Notes: a model not told the origin generated them from the letters alone. Positions 107-11,129 are shown, counted from the stretch's first letter. The stretch is 64,000 nucleotides of DNA from a virus (IMGVR_UViG_3300007609_001079:1-64000); one strand, 5' to 3'. Made by a program: numbers and translations.

Positions 107-993
107 TTCTCTATCTCCTGTATTGTCTTAGCAATATTAATTAGTCTTTCCTTTATCTTATAAATATGATTTTGGGTTCTTTTCCAATATTTTTGAGAAT
201 CCAACTCATTCATCGTTTTAATCTTATTATACCAATTAAAAAACTTTTCTGTTTCTGCCAACTGATACTTTAATTCTTTAAGACCCATTGCCATCTTTTT
301 ATGTGGATGCATTGTATCATCGTTTTTTAATTCTAACCAACGATTTACTGGTCTTTTTTGTTTTGCTTCTGAAATGATTTGGTCTTTTTTAAATGATACA
401 GATGGTGTTGCTGCAATCTTACCTTTACCACCAAAGTAATCTACCTTAGCATCAATACCAAATCTTGATTTTAATATCTTAACCACACCACTACCAAACT
501 TTTCATCTTTTAGTTTGATGTAAGTTTTTCCATCGCGAGTAGTGTTTTTTATTTCCTTTTCTACAAAACGAGAACCAATGGATTTAATAAGTGAATCTAC
601 CGAATCTCCAGCAAGTTGTCCTTTAAAATCTGATTCGTTTACTGATTCATTATAGAATGATTTTAAGTATTTGTGAAATTCTTTATCAGTTCTAACTTCT
701 TTATATTGTTTATCTGATAATACTTTTTTAATAAAATCAGTTATATTCTTAGAACCTTTTTTAATGATATTTAAATCGGACATAAAAGATTCATCAACTT
801 TACCAGCTAATGTATAACCAATTCTCTTAGCCATTTTCTTCTTACGTTTCTTATCAGAAGAACCTTTATCAGAAAAAGCATTTGGGGTTTGATAACCAGC
901 AACATTACCAGTTGTGGTTACTTCATCCATCTCACTTTGAACTTCATCTATGATTTCATCTAAGTATGATTTATTATTTTGTTTCATTGACAT
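103..993 (-). CDS. Hypothetical head-region protein with several x-x-Glu junctions
   Basis: 296-aa ORF downstream of portal; acidic leader ending MDE, internal VDE/YNE/VNE/ISE motifs, C-terminal helical/coiled-coil region. Confidence 0.6.
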   Translation of the reverse strand: MSMKQNNKSYLDEIIDEVQSEMDEVTTTGNVAGYQTPNAFSDKGSSDKKRKKKMAKRIGYTLAGKVDESFMSDLNIIKKGSKNITDFIKKVLSDKQYKEVRTDKEFHKYLKSFYNESVNESDFKGQLAGDSVDSLIKSIGSRFVEKEIKNTTRDGKTYIKLKDEKFGSGVVKILKSRFGIDAKVDYFGGKGKIAATPSVSFKKDQIISEAKQKRPVNRWLELKNDDTMHPHKKMAMGLKELKYQLAETEKFFNWYNKIKTMNELDSQKYWKRTQNHIYKIKERLINIAKTIQEIEK

Positions 994-1840
994 TTTTGAT
1001 TTCCTTAATTAATTCATAAGATAACATCAATGCAGAAACTTGCTCATCTGTAATTTTCTTACCAATTTTTTGTTTCTTGAGAACATTGATAGTTTCTCTT
1101 AATTTAATTTTGGTAATTTTATCACTCATACCTTTGTAGATAGTATGAAGTTCTGTAATAGTTTTTATTAATTGGTTTTCATAATATTCACCGAACTTAG
1201 AAGTGTTAGTAACATTATTAATATACTCACGAAGAAGCCCTTTTTGGTCATCATTAAGGTTAGTATATTTTTTGTTGAAAGATTCCACAAGAATTTTGTA
1301 GGTGATTAACCTTAAATCTTTTTCTTGTTTTTTGAAATCTTCTACCAATCTATCTTCCTTTTCTTTAATTGAAGGAGTAGATGTTGAGATATGTTCTATC
1401 AAAGTTAGTTTGGAATCAAATACATCTTTAACATCAAGAACGTTAATTGCCTTTGCTTCAAATAATTTATGAATAGATGCAAGGACTTTATAGTTAGTTA
1501 CTGGAGATGATAAAAAATTATCAATATCCAACGTTTCCTTAATTGCTTTAACTAAGTTGTATTTTTCTTTTTTAAGCTTAGTATAATCTAAACGAGTGTG
1601 TGCTTCTAAAATGGCATCAACAAACTTTTCAGATTTAGATTCTGTATTATACTTTTCGTTAATCAGCATGTTGAATAAACGAAGCTCCTTAGATAATTCA
1701 GTCTTTCCACCAAAAAATTCTTTTACAATATTCTTTGATTTTTCTTCACTACCATTCAACACCTCAAGTGTAATTTGACGAGTTAATAGTTCGAAAAGAA
1801 AACCCGTATTTTTAAATTTTGAATGTCTAATTTTTTTCAT
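974..1840 (-). CDS. Helical hypothetical protein immediately downstream of portal (possible prohead core/scaffold-associated)
   Basis: Long ORF; ATG at 1840 (MKKIRHSKFKNTG) preferred over TTG at 1855; preceded by TATATTTATA. Function inferred from position only. Confidence 0.55.
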   Translation of the reverse strand: MKKIRHSKFKNTGFLFELLTRQITLEVLNGSEEKSKNIVKEFFGGKTELSKELRLFNMLINEKYNTESKSEKFVDAILEAHTRLDYTKLKKEKYNLVKAIKETLDIDNFLSSPVTNYKVLASIHKLFEAKAINVLDVKDVFDSKLTLIEHISTSTPSIKEKEDRLVEDFKKQEKDLRLITYKILVESFNKKYTNLNDDQKGLLREYINNVTNTSKFGEYYENQLIKTITELHTIYKGMSDKITKIKLRETINVLKKQKIGKKITDEQVSALMLSYELIKEIKNVNETK

Positions 1841-1880
1841 TTTGTTTAATTCCAATTATGATATGGTAAAATTATCCTAT

Positions 1881-1907: not shown

Positions 1908-3641
1908 TTAATTTTCTGTATCTTCGAGAATATTGTCCTCACTCAACATACTCCCATTTTCGTGTAAATATTTTCTCTTTGATGCAATTCCGTTGATGAT
2001 TTTCAACGCTTTTTCTTCGGATGTTCGAGAACGTTTTGAGGTTCTTTCATCATCACCAAGAGGGTCTCTACCATAAGGGTGTTTATCTTTTCCATAGGTT
2101 CCACCTTCTCTCGGTCTACCACCCTTATCTTTAATTTCTTGTTTTAGTTGTTCCAATGATTCTTCAATATCATTTGGTTCTTCATCATCCATTGCAGGGT
2201 CATTACCTTCATCTTCAATAGAACGGAAACGATATCTATCTTTTAAATCATCTAACATTTTAACTCGTTGTTCATCTTGTTCACCATCAGATAGTTTAAA
2301 GATGTTTTCATATACCCAATCTTTGGATAACATATTAAGACCTTGGATATCTTGAGCCAATCTAATTTTCTCTGACCAAAGATTTACTTTTTCTTGTTCG
2401 TAAATTGTAGATGGGTTTACTAATGATAAACTAAAATTAGTCATCTCTGAATCTTGGATACCTTGTGAGTATAAGTGAACGATGGCAATTTTAGATAATT
2501 CCGAAATTACTGTTCTTTGGATTCTTTCAATTGTTCTTGCAAATCTTACATCTTCTGCAGCAAGGGTTGCTTTACCATTTACATTTTCTTCGTACCCTAA
2601 ATAAGCACGAGGAATTTTTAATGCAGCAAACATCTTGTTCTTTAAGTAATCGATATCATCCAATGAAGGTGTATCTAAGCCTGGTAGGTTTTCAATAGAT
2701 GTTCCACTATCTCCACCACGAACCGGTAAGAAGAAATCTTCTGTTAGGTTCTGCATATTATACTTTAAGTTATAATCGCCGGTGTTTCTATCAACAAAAG
2801 GAACTTTCTTCATCTTGTTGATAATTCTTTGCATGTAATTATCAACTTCAGTAGGAGCAATGTTTCCAATATCAATTTTGAAAACTCTCTTTTCAGGTGC
2901 TCTCATAATTCTGTGGATTAACATTGCATCTTCCATTAAAGAAATCTGTTTCCACAATCTTCTACCATTTTCAATCATTGATTTTCCATATGGTAACCAA
3001 TTGGTATCCGCTAATAATCTGAAGTGTGCAATTTCAAAATTTTCGTATTCTTCTTTTCCATTCGGGTCCTCGGTAATTTTAAACTTTACTGAGTTTGGAT
3101 TTGAAGGGTCGGTTCTTTCTAATCTTTCGGTATTGTAAACAGAATGTGGAGTAACGTTAACGATACCCTTACCTTCTGCAACTTCTAAACCTAAAAAGAA
3201 ATCTCCATACTTACACATATTACGAACCCAGGGCCATAAATTAAACTCTACGTTCATTACATCGTAAAATAAGTTATTAAGAACATCTTGAACTTTTTCA
3301 TTATCTGAATGAACTAATAGGATATCACCAAACTCATTTTTTAAAGTAGATTCATCTGCGTAGATATCTAATGCAGAAGCAAGAATAGGGTCATTATCCA
3401 TTGCATCATAATCACGGAAAACTTCTCTACGAACTTGTTGGTATGCCATTGATTGTGCACCACCTGCTTGTTCATAGAAAGATTTCTGTAACTTAGTGTA
3501 TCTATCTCTTAGAGATGATAAGTTAGTTTGCTGTCTTTCATCAGTATCATATACTTTTCTCTTACCATCCTTATCAACCGTAACTATTGCTTGAGAACGA
3601 AAGAGTTTAGTTAACCTCCCAAAAAATGAAGTATCTGCCAT
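1908..3641 (-). CDS. gp20: T4-like portal protein
   Basis: EDAMLIHRIMRAPEKRVFKIDIGN, EDFFLPVRGG, IENLPG, DIDYLKNKMFAALKIP, EDVRFARTIERIQ match the conserved T4 gp20 blocks. Confidence 0.95.
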   Translation of the reverse strand: MADTSFFGRLTKLFRSQAIVTVDKDGKRKVYDTDERQQTNLSSLRDRYTKLQKSFYEQAGGAQSMAYQQVRREVFRDYDAMDNDPILASALDIYADESTLKNEFGDILLVHSDNEKVQDVLNNLFYDVMNVEFNLWPWVRNMCKYGDFFLGLEVAEGKGIVNVTPHSVYNTERLERTDPSNPNSVKFKITEDPNGKEEYENFEIAHFRLLADTNWLPYGKSMIENGRRLWKQISLMEDAMLIHRIMRAPEKRVFKIDIGNIAPTEVDNYMQRIINKMKKVPFVDRNTGDYNLKYNMQNLTEDFFLPVRGGDSGTSIENLPGLDTPSLDDIDYLKNKMFAALKIPRAYLGYEENVNGKATLAAEDVRFARTIERIQRTVISELSKIAIVHLYSQGIQDSEMTNFSLSLVNPSTIYEQEKVNLWSEKIRLAQDIQGLNMLSKDWVYENIFKLSDGEQDEQRVKMLDDLKDRYRFRSIEDEGNDPAMDDEEPNDIEESLEQLKQEIKDKGGRPREGGTYGKDKHPYGRDPLGDDERTSKRSRTSEEKALKIINGIASKRKYLHENGSMLSEDNILEDTEN

Positions 3642-3678
3642 TTTGTTTTTTCTTTAAATTATAACCTTTATTGTATTA

Positions 3679-4059
3679 TTACCATTTTCTACAAGACCAA
3701 TATCTTGCTTTGTGCCTTGGACCTGGTGAATCACAATTGTGTCTTGCTCTAAAAGCTTTTCGTGCATCAGGATTATTTTTACGAATTTTCATCGTTTTTC
3801 CTTTTGCAGAACTTCCACCATGTCCAAAGTTTACTTTGACAACGTTTCCTTGGGGGTTTTTAACATATACTTTGAATTTCTTGACATCACCTTGCATCGG
3901 TTTACCAAGTTTTACTTTTCTACCTTGATACTCAGCTTCGTTCATATCAGCTTTGTATTCTTTCATGAATTCGCAAAATTCTTTGATGTCATGGTAGTTT
4001 TCCACCACATACTCTTCACAATATGAATTATTTTCTAATAAGCTAGATAAATTTATCAT
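3679..4059 (-). CDS. Small basic protein of T4-like phages (RKAFRARHNC...ARYWSC type), possibly head-packaged
   Basis: Acidic leader ending MNE followed by a very basic domain; AGGAGA SD and TATATTTATA upstream. Confidence 0.65.
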   Translation of the reverse strand: MINLSSLLENNSYCEEYVVENYHDIKEFCEFMKEYKADMNEAEYQGRKVKLGKPMQGDVKKFKVYVKNPQGNVVKVNFGHGGSSAKGKTMKIRKNNPDARKAFRARHNCDSPGPRHKARYWSCRKW

Positions 4060-4077
4060 TATTTCTTCTCCTTATAG

Positions 4078-4087
4078 TATAAATATA
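4078..4087 (-). promoter_or_regulatory. TATATTTATA putative late promoter
   Basis: Exact 10-mer ~19 nt upstream of the 4059 start. Confidence 0.7.
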
Positions 4088-4109
4088 TAATAATTAAATT
4101 ATAACTATT

Positions 4110-5705
4110 TTACAACAACCACGTTAAATCTTCTTGGGAACCATTAACATCGATTGACCATGGATTTTGTTCCAATGATGAATTACCACCAAACCCACCT
4201 CCACCACTTCCAATAGAAGTTTGGTTAGTAGAAATACTACCAAGTGCGTTTAAGGTTAAATCCATCCCTTCTTGCCTTAATCTAAGTGCGGTATCTCGAA
4301 CCCAAAGGGATATTGATAAGGACATAACTAAATCATCATTATATCCTCTCATTGCTTCAGCACGATTTCCATTCCATATAAAAGTAAATAACTCATCTAT
4401 GGTTCTCGTTGAACGTATAAGAACTTCTTTCTCTCTGATGTATTGTTCCATTTTAGAAATAATCAAAGGACGAGTTTTAGAAGTTGTTGAAAATCCAGCG
4501 GTCATATTTCGTTCTTCTGCTCGGTATTTATTATGTAATTGATGTTCTACATCCACATACTTTAAATCCTTACTCATATAGAAAAGGTTTTGATATCCTC
4601 TATCGATTACTTGTTGAATTACTGCCCAACCAATATTTGCGTTTTCAATTACGAGCAGTGCATTGTTGTAATCCGTTGATAATGATACGAGAAAGTTTCC
4701 AAAATCTTTGGTATCTAATTTACCTTTATATTCTGCAACTTGTGCGGAGTTCTCTATATCGATAACATGACATGCAGAGAAATCAGCAGAATCACCACGA
4801 GCAACATCGGCAACGACCATATAAGATTTCTGATAGTTAGGGTATTCCCATTTCCAAAGGTTTCCATCGAACCCAGTCTTTTCTACCGGTTCTTGACAGT
4901 AAGTTTCTTTGTAGAACATTAAAAGTTGTGGGTCGATTACAGTATCACCTGAACTTACAAAATCACAATCACATTCTTGTGCTGCACCTTTTGGTCCTAA
5001 AAGAACTTCTTGCTCATCTCTCCAAGTTTGGTCTCGTTCAGGATGAACTGACCAATGTAATCGGATAGTGTTAAAGGCATTACTACCATCTTCTGCACCT
5101 ACCCAAGTTTTGTGGAAGAAATTACCTACCCCATTTGGAGTTGATAAGATAATTGCGTTACCACCCGTTGATAAGGTAGATTGAGCAGATACCCAAATTT
5201 CTTCAATCTTATCGATAAAGGCTGCCTCATCAAATACTAATAAGGATAGTGCTTCAGAACGACCCGCATCACCTGCTGCAGATGTTGCTTTGATTTGAGA
5301 ACCATTTGAATATCGTAAAGATAATTTGTTATCTTCTACTGTTGTTTGTTTTAACCAAGAAGGTAAATACTGATTCATTACTCGAACCTTGGTTACCAAG
5401 TTTTTTGCAACCTCTTGTTTGGTTGCAATTACAAGAACGTTAAAATCTTGATTGAATAACATCTTCCATAATGAAAATCCTGCAGTTAAGGTTGATATAC
5501 CTGTTTGACGAGATTTTAAAATGATGTTATATCGATGTTCGTGAAATTGTGTTAGAGTTGATTCTTGGAATGGATATAATTGAAAAGGAATTTTACCACG
5601 AACTGGGTGTTGTATCATACAATACTTCTTCATGAAGTATATAGGGTCACCAGCACACTTCTGATACTCTAATTTAATTATATCTTTTAACGTTTGTTTA
5701 GCCAT
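4110..5705 (-). CDS. gp17: Terminase large subunit (T4 gp17-like)
   Basis: FQLYPFQ adenine motif, Walker A KSRQTGIST, Walker B LLVFDEAAF, coupling motif STPNG, nuclease motifs ADVARG, IENAN, DDLVMS. Confidence 0.95.
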   Translation of the reverse strand: MAKQTLKDIIKLEYQKCAGDPIYFMKKYCMIQHPVRGKIPFQLYPFQESTLTQFHEHRYNIILKSRQTGISTLTAGFSLWKMLFNQDFNVLVIATKQEVAKNLVTKVRVMNQYLPSWLKQTTVEDNKLSLRYSNGSQIKATSAAGDAGRSEALSLLVFDEAAFIDKIEEIWVSAQSTLSTGGNAIILSTPNGVGNFFHKTWVGAEDGSNAFNTIRLHWSVHPERDQTWRDEQEVLLGPKGAAQECDCDFVSSGDTVIDPQLLMFYKETYCQEPVEKTGFDGNLWKWEYPNYQKSYMVVADVARGDSADFSACHVIDIENSAQVAEYKGKLDTKDFGNFLVSLSTDYNNALLVIENANIGWAVIQQVIDRGYQNLFYMSKDLKYVDVEHQLHNKYRAEERNMTAGFSTTSKTRPLIISKMEQYIREKEVLIRSTRTIDELFTFIWNGNRAEAMRGYNDDLVMSLSISLWVRDTALRLRQEGMDLTLNALGSISTNQTSIGSGGGGFGGNSSLEQNPWSIDVNGSQEDLTWLL

Positions 5706-6106
5706 TATTTAGCAGTAAGATATAGGAACCCAAGTACACCGGCTGCATAAGTTCCTATTTTATAGAAAAATGTTTTTCTCTTTTCTCGTTTGAGTTCTTT
5801 AAGTAGTTGTTTAGATTTTTCTGATTCTAAACCAAATTGTTCATCTTTTTTTGAAATAATAGTTTCCAAGTTGATAACTTTAGAATTTAAGTTACCGATG
5901 ACAGAATCCTTTAGAACAACTTTCTTTTGTTCTAATTTTAAAAGTTCTTGAAGAGATAGTAATTCTAACTTTACACCATCCCCTTCAATTAAATCTTTAA
6001 TTACTAGTTTCGCTATTGGTTTTTTCAATGATACTATCGTATCGTTTTGCGAAAAACTCTTGAAGCTCACTAATAGTAAAATTATTAACAGAATTCCTTT
6101 TTTCAT
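5705..6106 (-). CDS. Exported coiled-coil protein with C-terminal hydrophobic anchor (candidate spanin partner)
   Basis: Signal peptide MKKGILLIILLLVSFKSFS/Q, coiled coil, C-terminal FFYKIGTYAAGVLGFLYL; own AAGGAG SD inside the upstream gene. Confidence 0.5.
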   Translation of the reverse strand: MKKGILLIILLLVSFKSFSQNDTIVSLKKPIAKLVIKDLIEGDGVKLELLSLQELLKLEQKKVVLKDSVIGNLNSKVINLETIISKKDEQFGLESEKSKQLLKELKREKRKTFFYKIGTYAAGVLGFLYLTAK

Positions 6107-6371
6107 CTGTGTTTCTCCTTATTGTAAAAATATTATTTTGAACTCTATCTATATCACCATCGATTAATTGGAGTTCTGTATGTAACGATTCTATTAAATT
6201 ATCCAATTCAGTATTCATAGTTTGGATAGAATCTATTTCTTTACCAATGTTTTCAATTTTTTCATTAAACCCATCAATATCGGTTTTAATCTGTCTCATA
6301 TTGTACAAATTAAAAACCAGCAATCCAAGGATTACGATTAAAACTAAATATTGATTTCGTCCTCCCGTCAT
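5997..6371 (-). CDS. N-terminally anchored coiled-coil membrane protein (i-spanin-like)
   Basis: TM segment YLVLIVILGLLVFNLY then heptad-rich coiled coil; overlaps the next gene by 110 nt. Confidence 0.5.
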   Translation of the reverse strand: MTGGRNQYLVLIVILGLLVFNLYNMRQIKTDIDGFNEKIENIGKEIDSIQTMNTELDNLIESLHTELQLIDGDIDRVQNNIFTIRRNTDEKRNSVNNFTISELQEFFAKRYDSIIEKTNSETSN

Positions 6372-7090: not shown

Positions 7091-10000
7091 TTAGAAGAAT
7101 ATACCCAATAGTTGATTTACAGATGCGAATGCACCAGTCAATTTGAAAGTATTTCCTTTATATTGGAAAACAATTCCTTCATTTGGTACAATTTTAGAAG
7201 GACCACCAATAGATTGTAATCGTTTTAACTCTAATTTTAATTTTTCAATCTTTTTAGGGTCACCTGATTTCTTAACATCTTTAATTGTCTTATCTATTCT
7301 CTTTTTTATCGAGCGAACTGCTTCATCTGGGTTTACAGTAAGTACTGATGATGTAAATTCTAATACATCTGCACCAACCCCTAAGAAAATATTTTCAAAT
7401 TTCATTAAATTATCTTTTGAAATTTTCTTTTGGTCTTGTGAATCAATTTTCTTTGCCCAAATTAGAGTTTTTTCATCAGCAATATTCTTTTTATCTAATC
7501 TAAACTTCTTATCCATGAATGCCCATCTCTTAACTAACCCCATTAGAGTTTTATTATCGAGTGTTGTTGGTGAATTTTTAGTAATCCATTGTTTCCACCA
7601 CTCTTGGTGGTATTCTGCAACTCCATCAGTATCCTTTAAACCGAATTCTTTTTGTAATTTAGAAATTTGTGAGGTATATTTTCCTTTTTTAGAGGATAAT
7701 TGTTGTGATTTTGGTAATTTAATTACAGGTGGACCTTGAATTGTGTAATTATTTTGTACATCTTTGTTGATTTGTTTAATCATACCTGCCAAGATTCTCC
7801 CAGCATCTGCATTTTCTCCAATTGCAACACCATTCTCATCATATTCCATTGTTCCATGTAATACTAATAGAGGTTGACCATAAGGAATTACATTTACTGA
7901 AGTAGGATATATTACTTCAAGGTTCATAAAACACGAACCTCCTTTAAAAATCTTCTCTCGTTGTTTTGATGATAGTGATTTAATAGAATCAGATAAATCT
8001 TTCATAGCAAAGTTGTATGCTTTTTCCAATTCACCCCTTCCAGCGAACTTATCAGCAACTGCTTTTATATCTAATGCATTCTCACCACTATTTTTTAGAT
8101 GTCCTTTATTTCTTGCAGCAACTAATCTTCCATTTACCCAAGAAACTGCAAGTGCTTGACCATCAGTTTTTTCTCGTGTAAATTCTAAGTTACCTTCCAA
8201 TGCACGATTAACGATATCTTTAAGTTGTCCAAAGGTTAAGTTGATTTCAGTATCAAATGGATGATTCATATGCCCATATGCACCACCTTCCATTAACATA
8301 TTAGATTCGTTAATATTTTCTTTTATTAACTGGTCTGATGTTTTAGTTGTTGGATAAAACATCTCAACAATATGATTATCTAAATCCTCTAATAACTTAT
8401 CTATATTATCATTCATACCTTCGTTATATTTTTCTTTAAATGCAGTATGCATCTTTTGTATATCAGTTGGTATAGATAATTTTAATTTATCAGTTGATTC
8501 ACTTAAAGATTCACCCAATCCACCTCTATCATGTTTGGAGAATTTACTTAGTTTATCATATGCTCTGAATGATTTTAATTTATCTTGTTTTATTGGTCTC
8601 ATATCAGATAGTTGTTTGTATCTCATATGATTTTTAACAACGTATAAAACATTAGCAACATTACCACCAACGGACTTAATCCAATCTTTATATTTCTTTA
8701 CCAATGAAGCAGAAACTTTTTCGTGCCCAAAGTGTGTAATATGACCCTTCTTTGGATGAATACCTGCGGTTTCATCTTTTCCTATATCGTGAAACATTGC
8801 TGCTATTGCAATATCAATATCATCATCTTTTAAAGAACGATTTACAACTGTAATTGTATGTTTTAAAACATTACCCTCTGGATGTTTATCCAACCTCTGT
8901 CCAAAGTTTTTTAAGTTATATACCCTTTTTTGTAATTCAGATGGCATTTTTTTGAATAGTGATTTGAAATTAGTAATTCCTAACTTTTCAAGTTCCTTAC
9001 CTTCACTTAAACGAACCATAGATTCTTTACTTCTAAAATCTCGGTTAGAACCTTTGTTATTCTTAAATCCAAATGATTTATAGAACTGAACTAATCTTGA
9101 TTTCGAACCACCAAAATCCGAACTTGGTGTTGTGAAAATATCTTTGTTATTTTGTTGTGCATATTTTATCAAGTCTTGCATTACCTTAGAACCAATACCT
9201 TTATTTCGTTGGTCTTGTGGTACTACAACTCTTCTCAACTCTAAGTGATTTGGGTATTCGTAAATATCTAAATCAACTTTATATTTACTTGATAAAGTAT
9301 TTTCAATTCCTTCATTTATTTTTGTAATTTGTTCGTTTTTAGGAGAGAATTTCTCTACTTCCTTTGCACGTAAAACAGGTAAGAACTTAAACTTAGCTCG
9401 TTTCAATATTCTACCTTTTTTTCTAACTACATTCTTGTGAACTACCTGAGATTGTTTGATAGATAAATCGGATTTCTTTATATCGGGAAATAATTCTTTT
9501 GCAAACTCATCATAAACTTGTCGGTATGCCATCTTGTAAGCAATCTTTTTAAGTTTAGAAAGAGGTTTTCTTCTCTTCATTGTTCTTGCTCGTCTCCTTG
9601 CTATTTGAGCTCTCTTACCAGCCATTGCAGCTTTTCTTCTCAACTTATCAGCTGGTCTCATCTTACCTCGTTCTTCTAAATCTTCAGATTCTCCCAATAT
9701 ACCATTCTTTTCTTGCCATGAATCAAATGCATCATAATCGTATTCTTGTTGTTGAGAATCCCAACCACACGAATGACATAGATACTTTTCGTTATCATCA
9801 GATTCTATTTCCCATGAATGATTACATTTTTCACATTGGATTGTAGTTCCTGCGAGTTCTACTACAAAGTTTTCATTCATATATCTGAATGTAACTACTT
9901 TCTTACCATTAATAGTTGGCATACCATGTTCATCTTTACCAATAGATTTAACAACAACTTTTTTGTTCTTAAATTTACCCATTAATAAAGTATCACCAAT

Positions 10001-11098
10001 TTCTACTGGTAAGTTTATTGCCTCTTTAAGTGAGTTTTCATATTCCGATTGAGATTCTTTATCTCCTTGTTGAGAACCAAGTGCAGTTTCTTTATCAGTC
10101 TGATTAGATTCTATTCCACTTACCACCGAATATCCTACCAATGCTGCCTGTCGAGTAACATGAGTAAACCATTTTGAGTAAGCATCACTTGAATAGATAT
10201 CAATTTGGTTAGTTGCAGTTTTAGCACCAAGAACACCAGCAGGGAATGGGGTTACTGCTTTTACAGGCCCATTAGGATAAATTGGGTGTTCATAATAATC
10301 TTCTAATTCTTTAGATGATATCATATTAACAATCTCATATCCAATCTTTGCAGCTCTTTTAACGTTTATTTTAGAAAAGATATCAAAGTTAGGAAAAAAG
10401 TTGTTTGGTCCATCATCAACATCACTACCCATATTACCAACAACATTAGATGCTTCATTGATTAACCATTCTTCAATTCGTTCTTTAGGAATAAAGATAC
10501 CTTCGTTTAATTTAGAAGTGATTAAGTTGAATATGGTTTTGTTATATTTTGGGTATGCTCTATCTGTAAAGAAAGATTGTTTTTGTTCATCTGAACCTAA
10601 TGATAATCCATTACGAACATCAGTACCGCTTATTGGGTTGGATTGAGATGGTGATACGTAAACATATCCCCTATCTCTATACCCCTCAGTTGGAGTTCCT
10701 TTTAATGGAGTAAAGTATTTACCACCTAAACGAGATTTATCCTTCTCACCAACAACAGTTATGAAGGCAGTGGTAGTTTCATCAAACTTTTTAAGGATTT
10801 CAGTTGGTTGGTATGGGTTTTTAACTTGATGTATTTTGGATTTAGGTATACCAAACATCGATGTCATTATCTGAACCTTCTCCTTAAAATTAAATGGAGA
10901 TTTCGGTTTAGATACTTTGTTAGAAGTTCCTATAAAGACATTATTTTTACCAAATTTCTTTACAAGATGTTGGTAAGTAGAATAGTGTCCTTTATGGAAA
11001 GGTTGAAATCTCCCAACATAAACAACTACTATCTTTTTAATAGGATTATCATCCTCGAGTAGAATTTGCTCTACGAGATATTTAGAAAGTTCATTCAT
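7091..11098 (-). CDS. Multidomain polyprotein: HxGH nucleotidyltransferase / unknown / small beta domain / Zn ribbon / basic domain / GNAT / HD / RNA-ligase-like
   Basis: GRFQPFHKGH...ISGTDVR; CEKC...CHSC; VVVPQDQRNKGIGS...FYKSFGF; HPEGNVLKHT...FHDIGK...GHE...NHM; EKTDG...ARNKG...NLEVI...EGIVF...FKLTG. Confidence 0.85.
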   Translation of the reverse strand: MNELSKYLVEQILLEDDNPIKKIVVVYVGRFQPFHKGHYSTYQHLVKKFGKNNVFIGTSNKVSKPKSPFNFKEKVQIMTSMFGIPKSKIHQVKNPYQPTEILKKFDETTTAFITVVGEKDKSRLGGKYFTPLKGTPTEGYRDRGYVYVSPSQSNPISGTDVRNGLSLGSDEQKQSFFTDRAYPKYNKTIFNLITSKLNEGIFIPKERIEEWLINEASNVVGNMGSDVDDGPNNFFPNFDIFSKINVKRAAKIGYEIVNMISSKELEDYYEHPIYPNGPVKAVTPFPAGVLGAKTATNQIDIYSSDAYSKWFTHVTRQAALVGYSVVSGIESNQTDKETALGSQQGDKESQSEYENSLKEAINLPVEIGDTLLMGKFKNKKVVVKSIGKDEHGMPTINGKKVVTFRYMNENFVVELAGTTIQCEKCNHSWEIESDDNEKYLCHSCGWDSQQQEYDYDAFDSWQEKNGILGESEDLEERGKMRPADKLRRKAAMAGKRAQIARRRARTMKRRKPLSKLKKIAYKMAYRQVYDEFAKELFPDIKKSDLSIKQSQVVHKNVVRKKGRILKRAKFKFLPVLRAKEVEKFSPKNEQITKINEGIENTLSSKYKVDLDIYEYPNHLELRRVVVPQDQRNKGIGSKVMQDLIKYAQQNNKDIFTTPSSDFGGSKSRLVQFYKSFGFKNNKGSNRDFRSKESMVRLSEGKELEKLGITNFKSLFKKMPSELQKRVYNLKNFGQRLDKHPEGNVLKHTITVVNRSLKDDDIDIAIAAMFHDIGKDETAGIHPKKGHITHFGHEKVSASLVKKYKDWIKSVGGNVANVLYVVKNHMRYKQLSDMRPIKQDKLKSFRAYDKLSKFSKHDRGGLGESLSESTDKLKLSIPTDIQKMHTAFKEKYNEGMNDNIDKLLEDLDNHIVEMFYPTTKTSDQLIKENINESNMLMEGGAYGHMNHPFDTEINLTFGQLKDIVNRALEGNLEFTREKTDGQALAVSWVNGRLVAARNKGHLKNSGENALDIKAVADKFAGRGELEKAYNFAMKDLSDSIKSLSSKQREKIFKGGSCFMNLEVIYPTSVNVIPYGQPLLVLHGTMEYDENGVAIGENADAGRILAGMIKQINKDVQNNYTIQGPPVIKLPKSQQLSSKKGKYTSQISKLQKEFGLKDTDGVAEYHQEWWKQWITKNSPTTLDNKTLMGLVKRWAFMDKKFRLDKKNIADEKTLIWAKKIDSQDQKKISKDNLMKFENIFLGVGADVLEFTSSVLTVNPDEAVRSIKKRIDKTIKDVKKSGDPKKIEKLKLELKRLQSIGGPSKIVPNEGIVFQYKGNTFKLTGAFASVNQLLGIFF

Positions 11099-11119
11099 TT
11101 AGTATATACCTTATCAGTA

Positions 11120-11129
11120 TATAAATATG
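11120..11129 (-). promoter_or_regulatory. CATATTTATA putative late promoter (1 mismatch)
   Basis: ~22 nt upstream of the polyprotein ATG. Confidence 0.65.

Follow-up and report, generated by a model that had tools for sequence, protein, structure and literature searches.

Enzyme modules joined by [L/I]-x-Glu linkers: a candidate packaged precursor encoded beside the packaging genes of a virus from IMG/VR

The subject of this analysis is a gene on the minus strand of a contig from IMG/VR (IMGVR_UViG_3300007609_001079; CheckV completeness 55%) that belongs to a large, uncultured, T4-like phage; the first 64 kb of its 101,661 bp form the window. The open reading frame (ORF) at 7091-11098 has 1335 codons, and its uninterrupted translation gives a protein of 1335 amino acids (aa). 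This protein, called here the precursor, is the product of a single ORF of independently folding modules, which are joined by disordered linkers carrying a conserved [L/I]-x-Glu tripeptide, often in tandem. A sequence-only reading of the window had proposed that one late gene makes a multi-enzyme polyprotein that is packaged through one leader, cut by the prohead protease at a motif found at each domain boundary, and injected at infection.

Modules of the precursor

The modules are listed from the N-terminus, all on the minus strand of the window. Structures are AlphaFold2 (AF2) models, the two halves of the chain having been folded separately with alignments of relatives, and confidence is expressed as predicted local distance difference test (pLDDT).

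11054..11098 (-): leader, aa 1-15, with LVE10 and LLE15; candidate capsid-targeting sequence, modelled as a helix at aa 2-15 and then coil
10502..11053 (-): NMNAT-like HxGH nucleotidyltransferase (NTase), aa 16-199, ending in LNE199; Pfam CTP_transf_like and predicted fold
10454..10501 (-): spacer helix, aa 200-215, with IEE210 and INE215; helix modelled at 205-221, pLDDT about 57-60
10022..10453 (-): 'DDGP' domain, aa 216-359, ending in LKE359; AF2 confidence 50-83
9857..10021 (-): small beta domain, aa 360-409, then the pentapeptide NFVVE (MNE409, VVE414); four short strands
9671..9856 (-): Zn ribbon, aa 415-470, CxxC...CxxC, followed by SEDLEE (LGE470, LEE476); weak HypA-like match
9311..9670 (-): Arg/Lys-rich helical domain, aa 477-596, ending in INE596; helices 482-584
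9002..9310 (-): minimal GNAT acetyltransferase, aa 597-699, ending in LSE699; Pfam Acetyltransf_7 and Acetyltransf_1
8510..9001 (-): HD phosphohydrolase, aa 700-863, ending in LGE863; Pfam HD, E 8e-7
8288..8509 (-): disordered linker by pLDDT, aa 864-937, with seven [LI]xE (867, 904, 912, 927, 931, 937 and others)
7094..8287 (-): RNA-ligase-like covalent nucleotidyltransferase, aa 938-1335; GGAYGH directly after LME937

By predicted fold and by motifs, the N-terminal module is NMNAT-like. Pfam places CTP_transf_like at aa 26-163 (E 1.7e-7), AF2 models aa 22-197 at pLDDT >90, and the top 16 matches in a structural search with aa 21-200 are all NMN/NaMN adenylyltransferases (Z 9.5-12.6; Foldseek E 1.5e-5); PPAT and cytidylyltransferases also reach Z 8-11.5. 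The HxGH and ISxTxxR motifs can be read directly in the chain as FHKGH (aa 34-38) and ISGTDVR (aa 156-162).

The C-terminal domain is, on its modelled fold and its motifs, a member of the RNA-ligase superfamily that lies outside any described sequence family. Its 398 residues (aa 938-1335) are modelled at pLDDT 90-98, and the eight best matches among 48,161 chains are all RNA ligases, including NgrRnl, Trl1, REL1, T4 Rnl1 and Rnl2, with 183-205 residues aligned at a root-mean-square deviation of 3.6-4.6 and Z scores of 8.0-8.8, a range that calls for caution although the run of matches is uniform. Foldseek ranks T4 Rnl1 on top and also finds Rnl3 and Trl1 (E 5e-3). K977, D979 and G980 of the KTDG motif are invariant in 66 sequences, while E1307-G1308 (EGIVF) and K1319 are nearly so. 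The module has no Pfam match and no match to PDB sequences above noise, and its family comprises 1715 clusters at 50% identity. The ligase fold with motifs I, IV and V, and the heal-and-seal repertoire obtained when the CCA-adding and kinase modules of relatives are included, recall T4 Pnkp+Rnl1 and fungal Trl1; the precursor differs from these in that its ligase belongs to no curated family and has a large helical insertion, and in that it has no kinase.

For the HD module, the Pfam match at aa 754-831 scores 29.8 bits, where the curated cut-off is 22 (E 8e-7), FHDIGK is read directly, aa 700-830 have high pLDDT, and structural matches comprise PhnZ, a CCA-type tRNA enzyme and YhaM (Z 6-7.4). 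The linker that follows is modelled at pLDDT <50 over aa 831-878, 886-918 and 921-939. The GNAT module (Pfam match at aa 612-688) matches phrog_10691, a profile of 3925 aa (E 3.6e-23), and its tblastn matches are giant phage proteins of the DarB-like/PLxRFG type; its fold is close to the minimal GNATs AcrVA5 (Z 6.8) and At1g77540. The Arg/Lys-rich domain reaches pLDDT 97 in helices 482-584, falls below 50 at aa 589-596 and has no family match in a Pfam-type search. The Pfam match of the Zn ribbon (HypA-like) is weak and covers aa 410-447, and the DDGP domain has neither a Pfam match nor a usable Atlas match. The DDGP, beta, Zn-ribbon and basic domains are left without a named fold, the fold searches having been dominated by the NTase and ligase domains. 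Pfam and PHROG searches found neither an embedded peptidase nor a MuF domain in the precursor; a SprT-like domain is present in one of 30 diverse relatives.

The domain reading made from the bare sequence thus held, with Pfam recovering CTP_transf_like, GNAT, HD and, weakly, the Zn ribbon, and the AF2 fold supplying the RNA-ligase type.

The [L/I]-x-Glu joints in the precursor and its relatives

All 14 hydrophobic-x-Glu tripeptides that had been counted by hand in the sequence-only reading lie exactly at the residues given for them in the translated ORF. The placement of [LI]xE is clearly far from chance, though the total count is barely raised: 19 [LI]xE were observed against 12.0±3.1 in shuffles, a mild rise, and 25 [LIVM]xE against 19.3±3.8. 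Residues with pLDDT <50 number 181 (13.6% of the chain) and contain 10 of the 19 [LI]xE (binomial p 6e-5), whereas shuffling residues within the linkers yields 2.9±1.5 sites. Leu or Ile occupies P3 for 10 of 18 Glu in linkers versus 9 of 68 elsewhere (Fisher p 4e-4), and the control patterns [LI]x[D/K/Q/N/S] show no linker enrichment in the same test. With seven more that fall beyond the pLDDT <50 residues, 17 of the 19 [LI]xE are found in linkers, the leader, domain ends or poorly ordered spacers, and only IYE614 and IGE1095 lie inside folded domains. These AF2-based statistics bear out the expectation that x-x-E motifs would be commoner at boundaries than inside domains.

Searches for relatives returned >2600 matches of similar length and 881 shorter ones, with architectures from 1000 to 1930 aa. 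Their breakpoints relative to the precursor (q197-215, 354-359, 405-419, 467-476, 587-597, 699-703, 863-889 and 915-937) are the joints that had been drawn from the sequence. Since the ends of BLAST high-scoring segment pairs scatter 3-10 residues around the joints, anchor-based counts were used for the joints instead. Directly before the ligase, all 162 distinct 16-residue contexts from close relatives read [LIVM]-x-E, with Leu or Ile at P3 in 161, Glu always at P1 and P2 free; a second site stands 4-10 aa upstream in 144 of the 162, for a background density of 0.015 per position. The beta domain, which occurs after the leader, after the NTase, after DDGP or directly before the ligase, has a site directly upstream in 107 of 117 distinct contexts and directly downstream in 113. 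In distant relatives, 21 of 26 internal NTase domains have a site in front of them that is in register with LLE15 of the leader, and the tandem sites of the Zn ribbon are kept in relatives (L.E ELDE / SIDE / DLDE). The leader itself has the consensus M..L...LVE.IL.E across relatives, and in style it agrees with the leaders of the split ligase gene and of small head-cluster proteins described below. One clade of distant relatives (P0300, P0302, P0306, P0312, P0322 and others) has LL[LQTK][C/M/A]GG at the ligase joint instead of LLxEGG and retains xE sites at its other joints.

Modules are gained, lost and moved at these joints, and the invariant architecture that would have spoken against a cassette array is not what relatives display. 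Many of them lack the DDGP domain, with the break at q197-201 / q354-357. A CCA-adding (PolyA_pol) module stands after the Zn ribbon in P0003 and after HD in P0004 and P0012, bounded in all three by ..xE^ in front and F[LM]NE^ behind (the caret marks the putative cut). Other cassettes in relatives comprise DUF5661, P-loop kinases (AAA_33/Zeta_toxin), a ParB-like segment, HD, GNAT and inteins. In the precursor, aa 868-889 align to the first residues (the first helix) of the CCA/PolyA_pol module that relatives carry there; this scar (window 8443-8508, minus strand, in the region of aa 864-885) indicates that the module was lost by an internal in-frame deletion and was not excised cleanly at its joints. 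A fixed order of domains is limited to close relatives, whereas distant ones may begin with the beta domain or even with the ligase. The prediction that modules change at the E sites between fixed first and last domains therefore stood as regards the joints, and had to be amended for the ends, which are fixed in close relatives only, and for the internal scar.

Seven loci encode the ligase in a gene of its own. Its product then starts with a 15-residue leader, MIRL.K[IL]LNE^[VI]LLKE^, and GGAYGH comes immediately afterwards. An origin of the split forms from recoded stop codons or frameshifts was rejected in view of locus L016, where the first gene ends in a clean stop and 10 nt containing a ribosome-binding site separate it from the ATG of the second. 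Distant stand-alone ligases have short leaders unrelated to this one that also end in [LIVM]xE directly before GG. Two stand-alone ligases begin with MGGAYGH, which makes the tripeptide unnecessary for the fold; LME937 lies in a disordered stretch, so that AF2 does not count it as part of the ligase fold either.

In two further loci (L035:1-2337 and 3104-4291; L052) the ligase is split, intein-like, within the catalytic motif KTDG. An IntN-like segment closes the upstream gene, and the downstream gene begins with 35 IntC-like residues ending in ..ILVHN, followed by TDGQ. To judge from these sequences, a natural split intein looks to re-join the ligase halves. The C-terminal piece has no leader, which matches expectation if splicing restores its link to the precursor. 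Intein/Hint domains were also found by Pfam in one distant relative.

Setting among head and packaging genes

In the direction of transcription, the precursor gene is followed by three small ORFs, TerL (4110-5705) and the portal gene (1908-3641), which confirms the earlier statement that it adjoins the packaging genes. The arrangement is general: in all of 67 loci TerL, and likewise the portal, lies downstream of the precursor gene, and among the 24 loci with enough flank 21 have the protease there too. The order of the window is reproduced in a complete relative with terminal repeats (G001, 288,673 bp), where three small genes come after the precursor gene, and then TerL, a 158-aa gene, the portal, three genes, Peptidase_S77 (T4 gp21; E 1.7e-27) and a Gp23-type capsid protein (E 2.6e-77); a second relative (G003) has S77 at E 5.2e-30. 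About 25 residues before its conserved ..VRR..VQPM block, the G001 capsid protein reads ..LLDE^ATATG, at the position of the T4 gp23 cleavage site. Small head-cluster proteins of G001 start with MIKLQTLLNE and MIKLRQLINE, akin to the leader of the split ligases. The supposed prohead protease of the lineage was thus found in relatives, as a gp21-type S77 enzyme together with a gp23-type capsid protein bearing an LxE^A site. The same layout occurs in the cultured Microcystis phage Mel-JY01, which encodes a 639-aa NTase-ligase form, MGKLINILLSE^ ... IIAE^GGLGGH; tblastn from Mel-JY01 did not reach marine cyanophages.

One further feature lies upstream of the precursor gene:

11118..11128 (-): promoter-like box ATATTTATATA between genes, 20 nt before the precursor ATG

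The box (T)ATATTTATATA recurs on the coding strand 20-35 nt upstream of eight minus-strand gene starts in the window (1855, 4059, 7030, 11098, 27794, 37280, 54919 and 56842), and three of the eight genes belong to the head/packaging block. It may serve this phage lineage as a promoter and is distinct from the T4 late box TATAAATA. The latter occurs 23 times in the window, against 19.4 expected by chance, which is no excess; only the position of a reverse-oriented box upstream of genes stands out. What had been read as an own late-type promoter is this recurring box, and not T4 TATAAATA in the coding direction.

Several neighbours deserve mention. The stretch from TerL to the precursor gene holds two small ORFs that overlap and have hydrophobic segments at their N-termini (5705-6371, minus strand), an arrangement kept in G001 and Mel-JY01. 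Between TerL and the portal, a 126-aa ORF (3679-4059, minus strand) has the N-terminus MINLSSLLE, with the G001 counterpart MIKLQTLLNE, and resembles a small protein of the head interior that carries a leader for capsid targeting. After the portal, where T4 has its core and scaffold proteins, ORFs 103-993 and 974-1855 (minus strand) show the strongest enrichment in [LI]xE of any ORF in the contig (z 2.6 and 3.6, respectively) and have no PHROG match; ORF 103-993 carries ..EMDE^VTTTG, akin to the capsid maturation site of relatives. Both probably belong to the core, scaffold or vertex of the prohead and are probably cut by the protease. At a greater distance upstream, the window has genes for T4-type tail-fibre and gp46/47-like proteins, as well as a large block of sugar and radical-SAM genes. 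A megablast of the first 12 kb against cultured phages gave no match.

Proposed packaging, cleavage and delivery

In T4, leaders of about 10 residues target internal proteins (IPs) and Alt into the prohead core, and gp21 cuts after Glu in L/I-x-E; redundant cleavage sites are known from phiKZ (PMC9026906). Set against this background, the gene is probably, if by no means surely, a late head-module precursor: a protein-level cassette array that would be packaged, cut and delivered with the DNA. The computational tests named in the sequence-only reading were all favourable to it; details were amended, and packaging, cleavage and injection are what we infer. The N-terminal amphipathic leader would act like a T4 capsid-targeting sequence, bringing the precursor into the prohead core, where the gp21-type (Peptidase S77) protease of the lineage would cut after the Glu of exposed linker sites. 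Cutting would strip off the leader and short spacer peptides and release domain-sized enzymes, and the freed pieces would remain in the filled head and enter the cell together with the DNA.

A homologue from cyanophages bears on the packaging step. S-CREM2 gp154, a 'cytidylyltransferase' detected in virions by mass spectrometry (PMC10665884), starts with MKNFSSFLTE^ and aligns to the precursor from residue 1 (BLAST E 1e-4). It belongs to the cyanophage core family T4-GC190 (559 records), also found in cyanophage virions (PMC3037559). The family shares with the precursor the HxGH NTase, the signature GRF/Y.P.HKGH ... KSP/NP.. and an N-terminal ..FLTE leader; it differs in its size of about 286 aa (NTase and a small C-terminal domain), in having no ligase, and in its distance (E about 1e-4). 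This virion-detected homologue may be taken as distant and indirect backing for packaging of the leader-NTase module. Another cyanophage protein, matched in BFVD and encoded by Synechococcus phage S-PM2 d138 (L088:8485-10260; 591 aa), combines a ligase-like domain (TKWDG ... EGFV ... K) with an HxGH NTase in reversed order and has no clear leader. The reversed order suggests that the enzyme pairing is old and independent of domain order; on its sequence, the protein supports the pairing of the two enzymes and not the polyprotein idea.

Several observations weigh against the proposed packaging and cleavage. In the contig itself neither S77 nor Gp23 is matched, the contig ending just past the portal, about 1 kb short of the expected protease position. 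The link to S-CREM2 gp154 is distant in profile comparison (hhalign E 8e-5, probability 60%, 64 columns). The whole proteome of the phage shows a slight excess of [LI]xE, with 387 observed for 323 expected, and the internal CCA scar at aa 868-889 departs from clean excision at the E sites. In 31 of 128 distant clusters (50% identity), Cys, Met or Ala replaces the Glu before GG. Given that Leu-Leu is kept there without Glu, the 'site' at the ligase joint may partly be a structural feature of the ligase domain; in this clade the ligase may stay fused, or the protease may differ. Leaderless forms that begin at the NTase, some of them possibly artefacts of gene calling, still keep internal sites, which is the opposite of expectation and means that leader and sites are not strictly coupled. 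As for the RNA-repair function, the modules of this precursor include no 5' kinase.

Some of these points would be accommodated by a packaged but essentially uncut polyvalent protein, perhaps with its leader removed, in which the linker tripeptides are used partly or never. The missing Glu at the ligase joint and the sites of leaderless forms both fit such a protein, as does the GNAT module, which is common to giant DarB-like/PLxRFG proteins that are thought to act uncut (PMC5512222). We nevertheless consider it unlikely: P3 and P1 are conserved with P2 free at many joints and in many contexts, redundant tandem sites are kept, the sites sit in disordered and accessible linkers, and T4 gp21 and phiKZ gp175 cut core-associated proteins wherever a consensus site is accessible (PMC9026906).

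Less probable still is a cytoplasmic RNA-repair/NAD enzyme that is never packaged and whose motif reflects the build of linkers and helix ends or a by-product of recombination. The gene always lies within the late head/packaging block, the split ligase acquires a leader of the type found in small head-cluster proteins, and distant homologues were detected in virions, none of which such an enzyme would lead one to expect, even though every recognisable module is a soluble enzyme with cytoplasmic substrates and T4 Pnkp and Rnl1 are not known as virion proteins. Recombination at linkers is suggested by P0062, where ..LIKE^NI.. is duplicated on either side of GNAT, and the mild proteome-wide enrichment of [LI]xE points the same way; shared linker ancestry, however, fails to explain joint sequences that differ except at P3 and P1, or why the unrelated leaders of distant stand-alone ligases nonetheless close with xE^GG. 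A component of the prohead core or scaffold that is cut and expelled like T4 gp22, gp67 and gp68, delivering nothing functional, would account for the location in the head module and for the many sites, including tandem ones, as in scaffold proteins, but is very improbable given catalytic motifs (KTDG Lys, EG, K; HxGH; HD) that are strictly conserved across about 1700 clusters, inteins in the ligase active-site motif as is typical of functionally important enzymes, and products of 12-45 kDa that, by analogy with T4, would not be expected to exit through capsid pores (PMC9026906).

If the precursor is packaged, cut and delivered as preferred here, the kit would comprise RNA-end repair (healing by HD, sealing by the ligase) and NAD-related and acetyltransferase activities, to which the kits of relatives would add CCA-adding and P-loop kinase modules. 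HD and ligase in this precursor, with CCA and kinase modules in relatives, point to repair of RNA/tRNA ends, and the near-constant NMNAT-like partner suggests a tie of the family to NAD chemistry, which has been linked to RNA repair and to NAD-depleting defences (PMC9503650). The kit would work before phage translation, most plausibly against tRNA-cleaving or NAD-depleting host defences, and evolutionary swapping of modules at the joints would lead different phages to carry different kits. A more general version, which we hold tentatively and a little short of probable, would make the prohead protease of T4-like aquatic and jumbo phages a general unpacking enzyme for evolvable multi-enzyme precursors, with one leader loading the cassettes, the protease releasing them within the head and a pre-translation counter-defence kit being injected. 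The kit would then consist of a new RNA ligase family, a CCA-adding enzyme, kinase, HD, NMNAT-like and AcrVA5-like GNAT modules, and new cassettes would be gained by in-frame insertion between LxE joints.

Comparison with known systems places the precursor between several of them. With the T4 internal proteins and Alt it would share an N-terminal leader of about 10-15 aa ending in L/I-x-Glu, late genes and delivery with DNA (PMC9026906), in a lineage whose protease is of gp21 type (S77) and whose capsid protein is of gp23 type. T4 cargo consists of single proteins with one terminal cut (two in Alt), whereas here a single chain has up to about nine enzyme or binding modules, conserved sites at every joint and shuffling between phages, with cleavage predicted from the sites. 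The inner-body and ejection proteins processed by phiKZ gp175 and SPN3US gp245 are similar in that a T4-related protease cuts many proteins of the head interior after Glu, sites are redundant and fragments are ejected into the host (PMC9026906); they differ in their motif, S/A/G-x-E, and in their substrates, which are mostly non-enzymatic with propeptides and include no enzyme arrays. Polyvalent proteins, known from phages and conjugative elements, are multi-domain proteins delivered with DNA, for which release via embedded peptidases has been proposed (PMC5512222). Like them (Iyer et al. 2017, PMC5512222), the precursor strings together effector domains that are not related to each other, its gene stands among late/packaging genes, and its GNAT module is common to the DarB-like/PLxRFG giants; unlike those with MPTase and other embedded peptidases, it carries at its joints the consensus of a prohead protease acting in trans. 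A term search of PMC5512222 (cytidylyltransferase, NMNAT: 0) did not find the pair of NMNAT-like and RNA-ligase-like domains, and the literature searched yielded no description of enzyme cassettes that can be shuffled, are lined up after a single leader and have the prohead-protease consensus at their joints. Unlike the T4 repair enzymes, which are early gene products, the precursor is proposed to be delivered as virion cargo.

If this proposal is true, many enzymes would be delivered by means of one targeting signal and an already existing protease. The logic of viral polyproteins would reach the tailed phages, and the concept of polyvalent proteins would gain a testable mechanism of processing. 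A very large, unmodelled family of RNA-ligase-like proteins (about 1700 clusters) would be almost always tied to an NMNAT-like enzyme, and tRNA/RNA repair and NAD chemistry would be pre-loaded in virions; such pre-loading would be sensible where a defence shuts translation down, since repair enzymes can no longer be made by a phage whose tRNAs have been cut. The leader and the LxE joints could, finally, provide a natural design rule for packing several foreign proteins into T4-type capsids.

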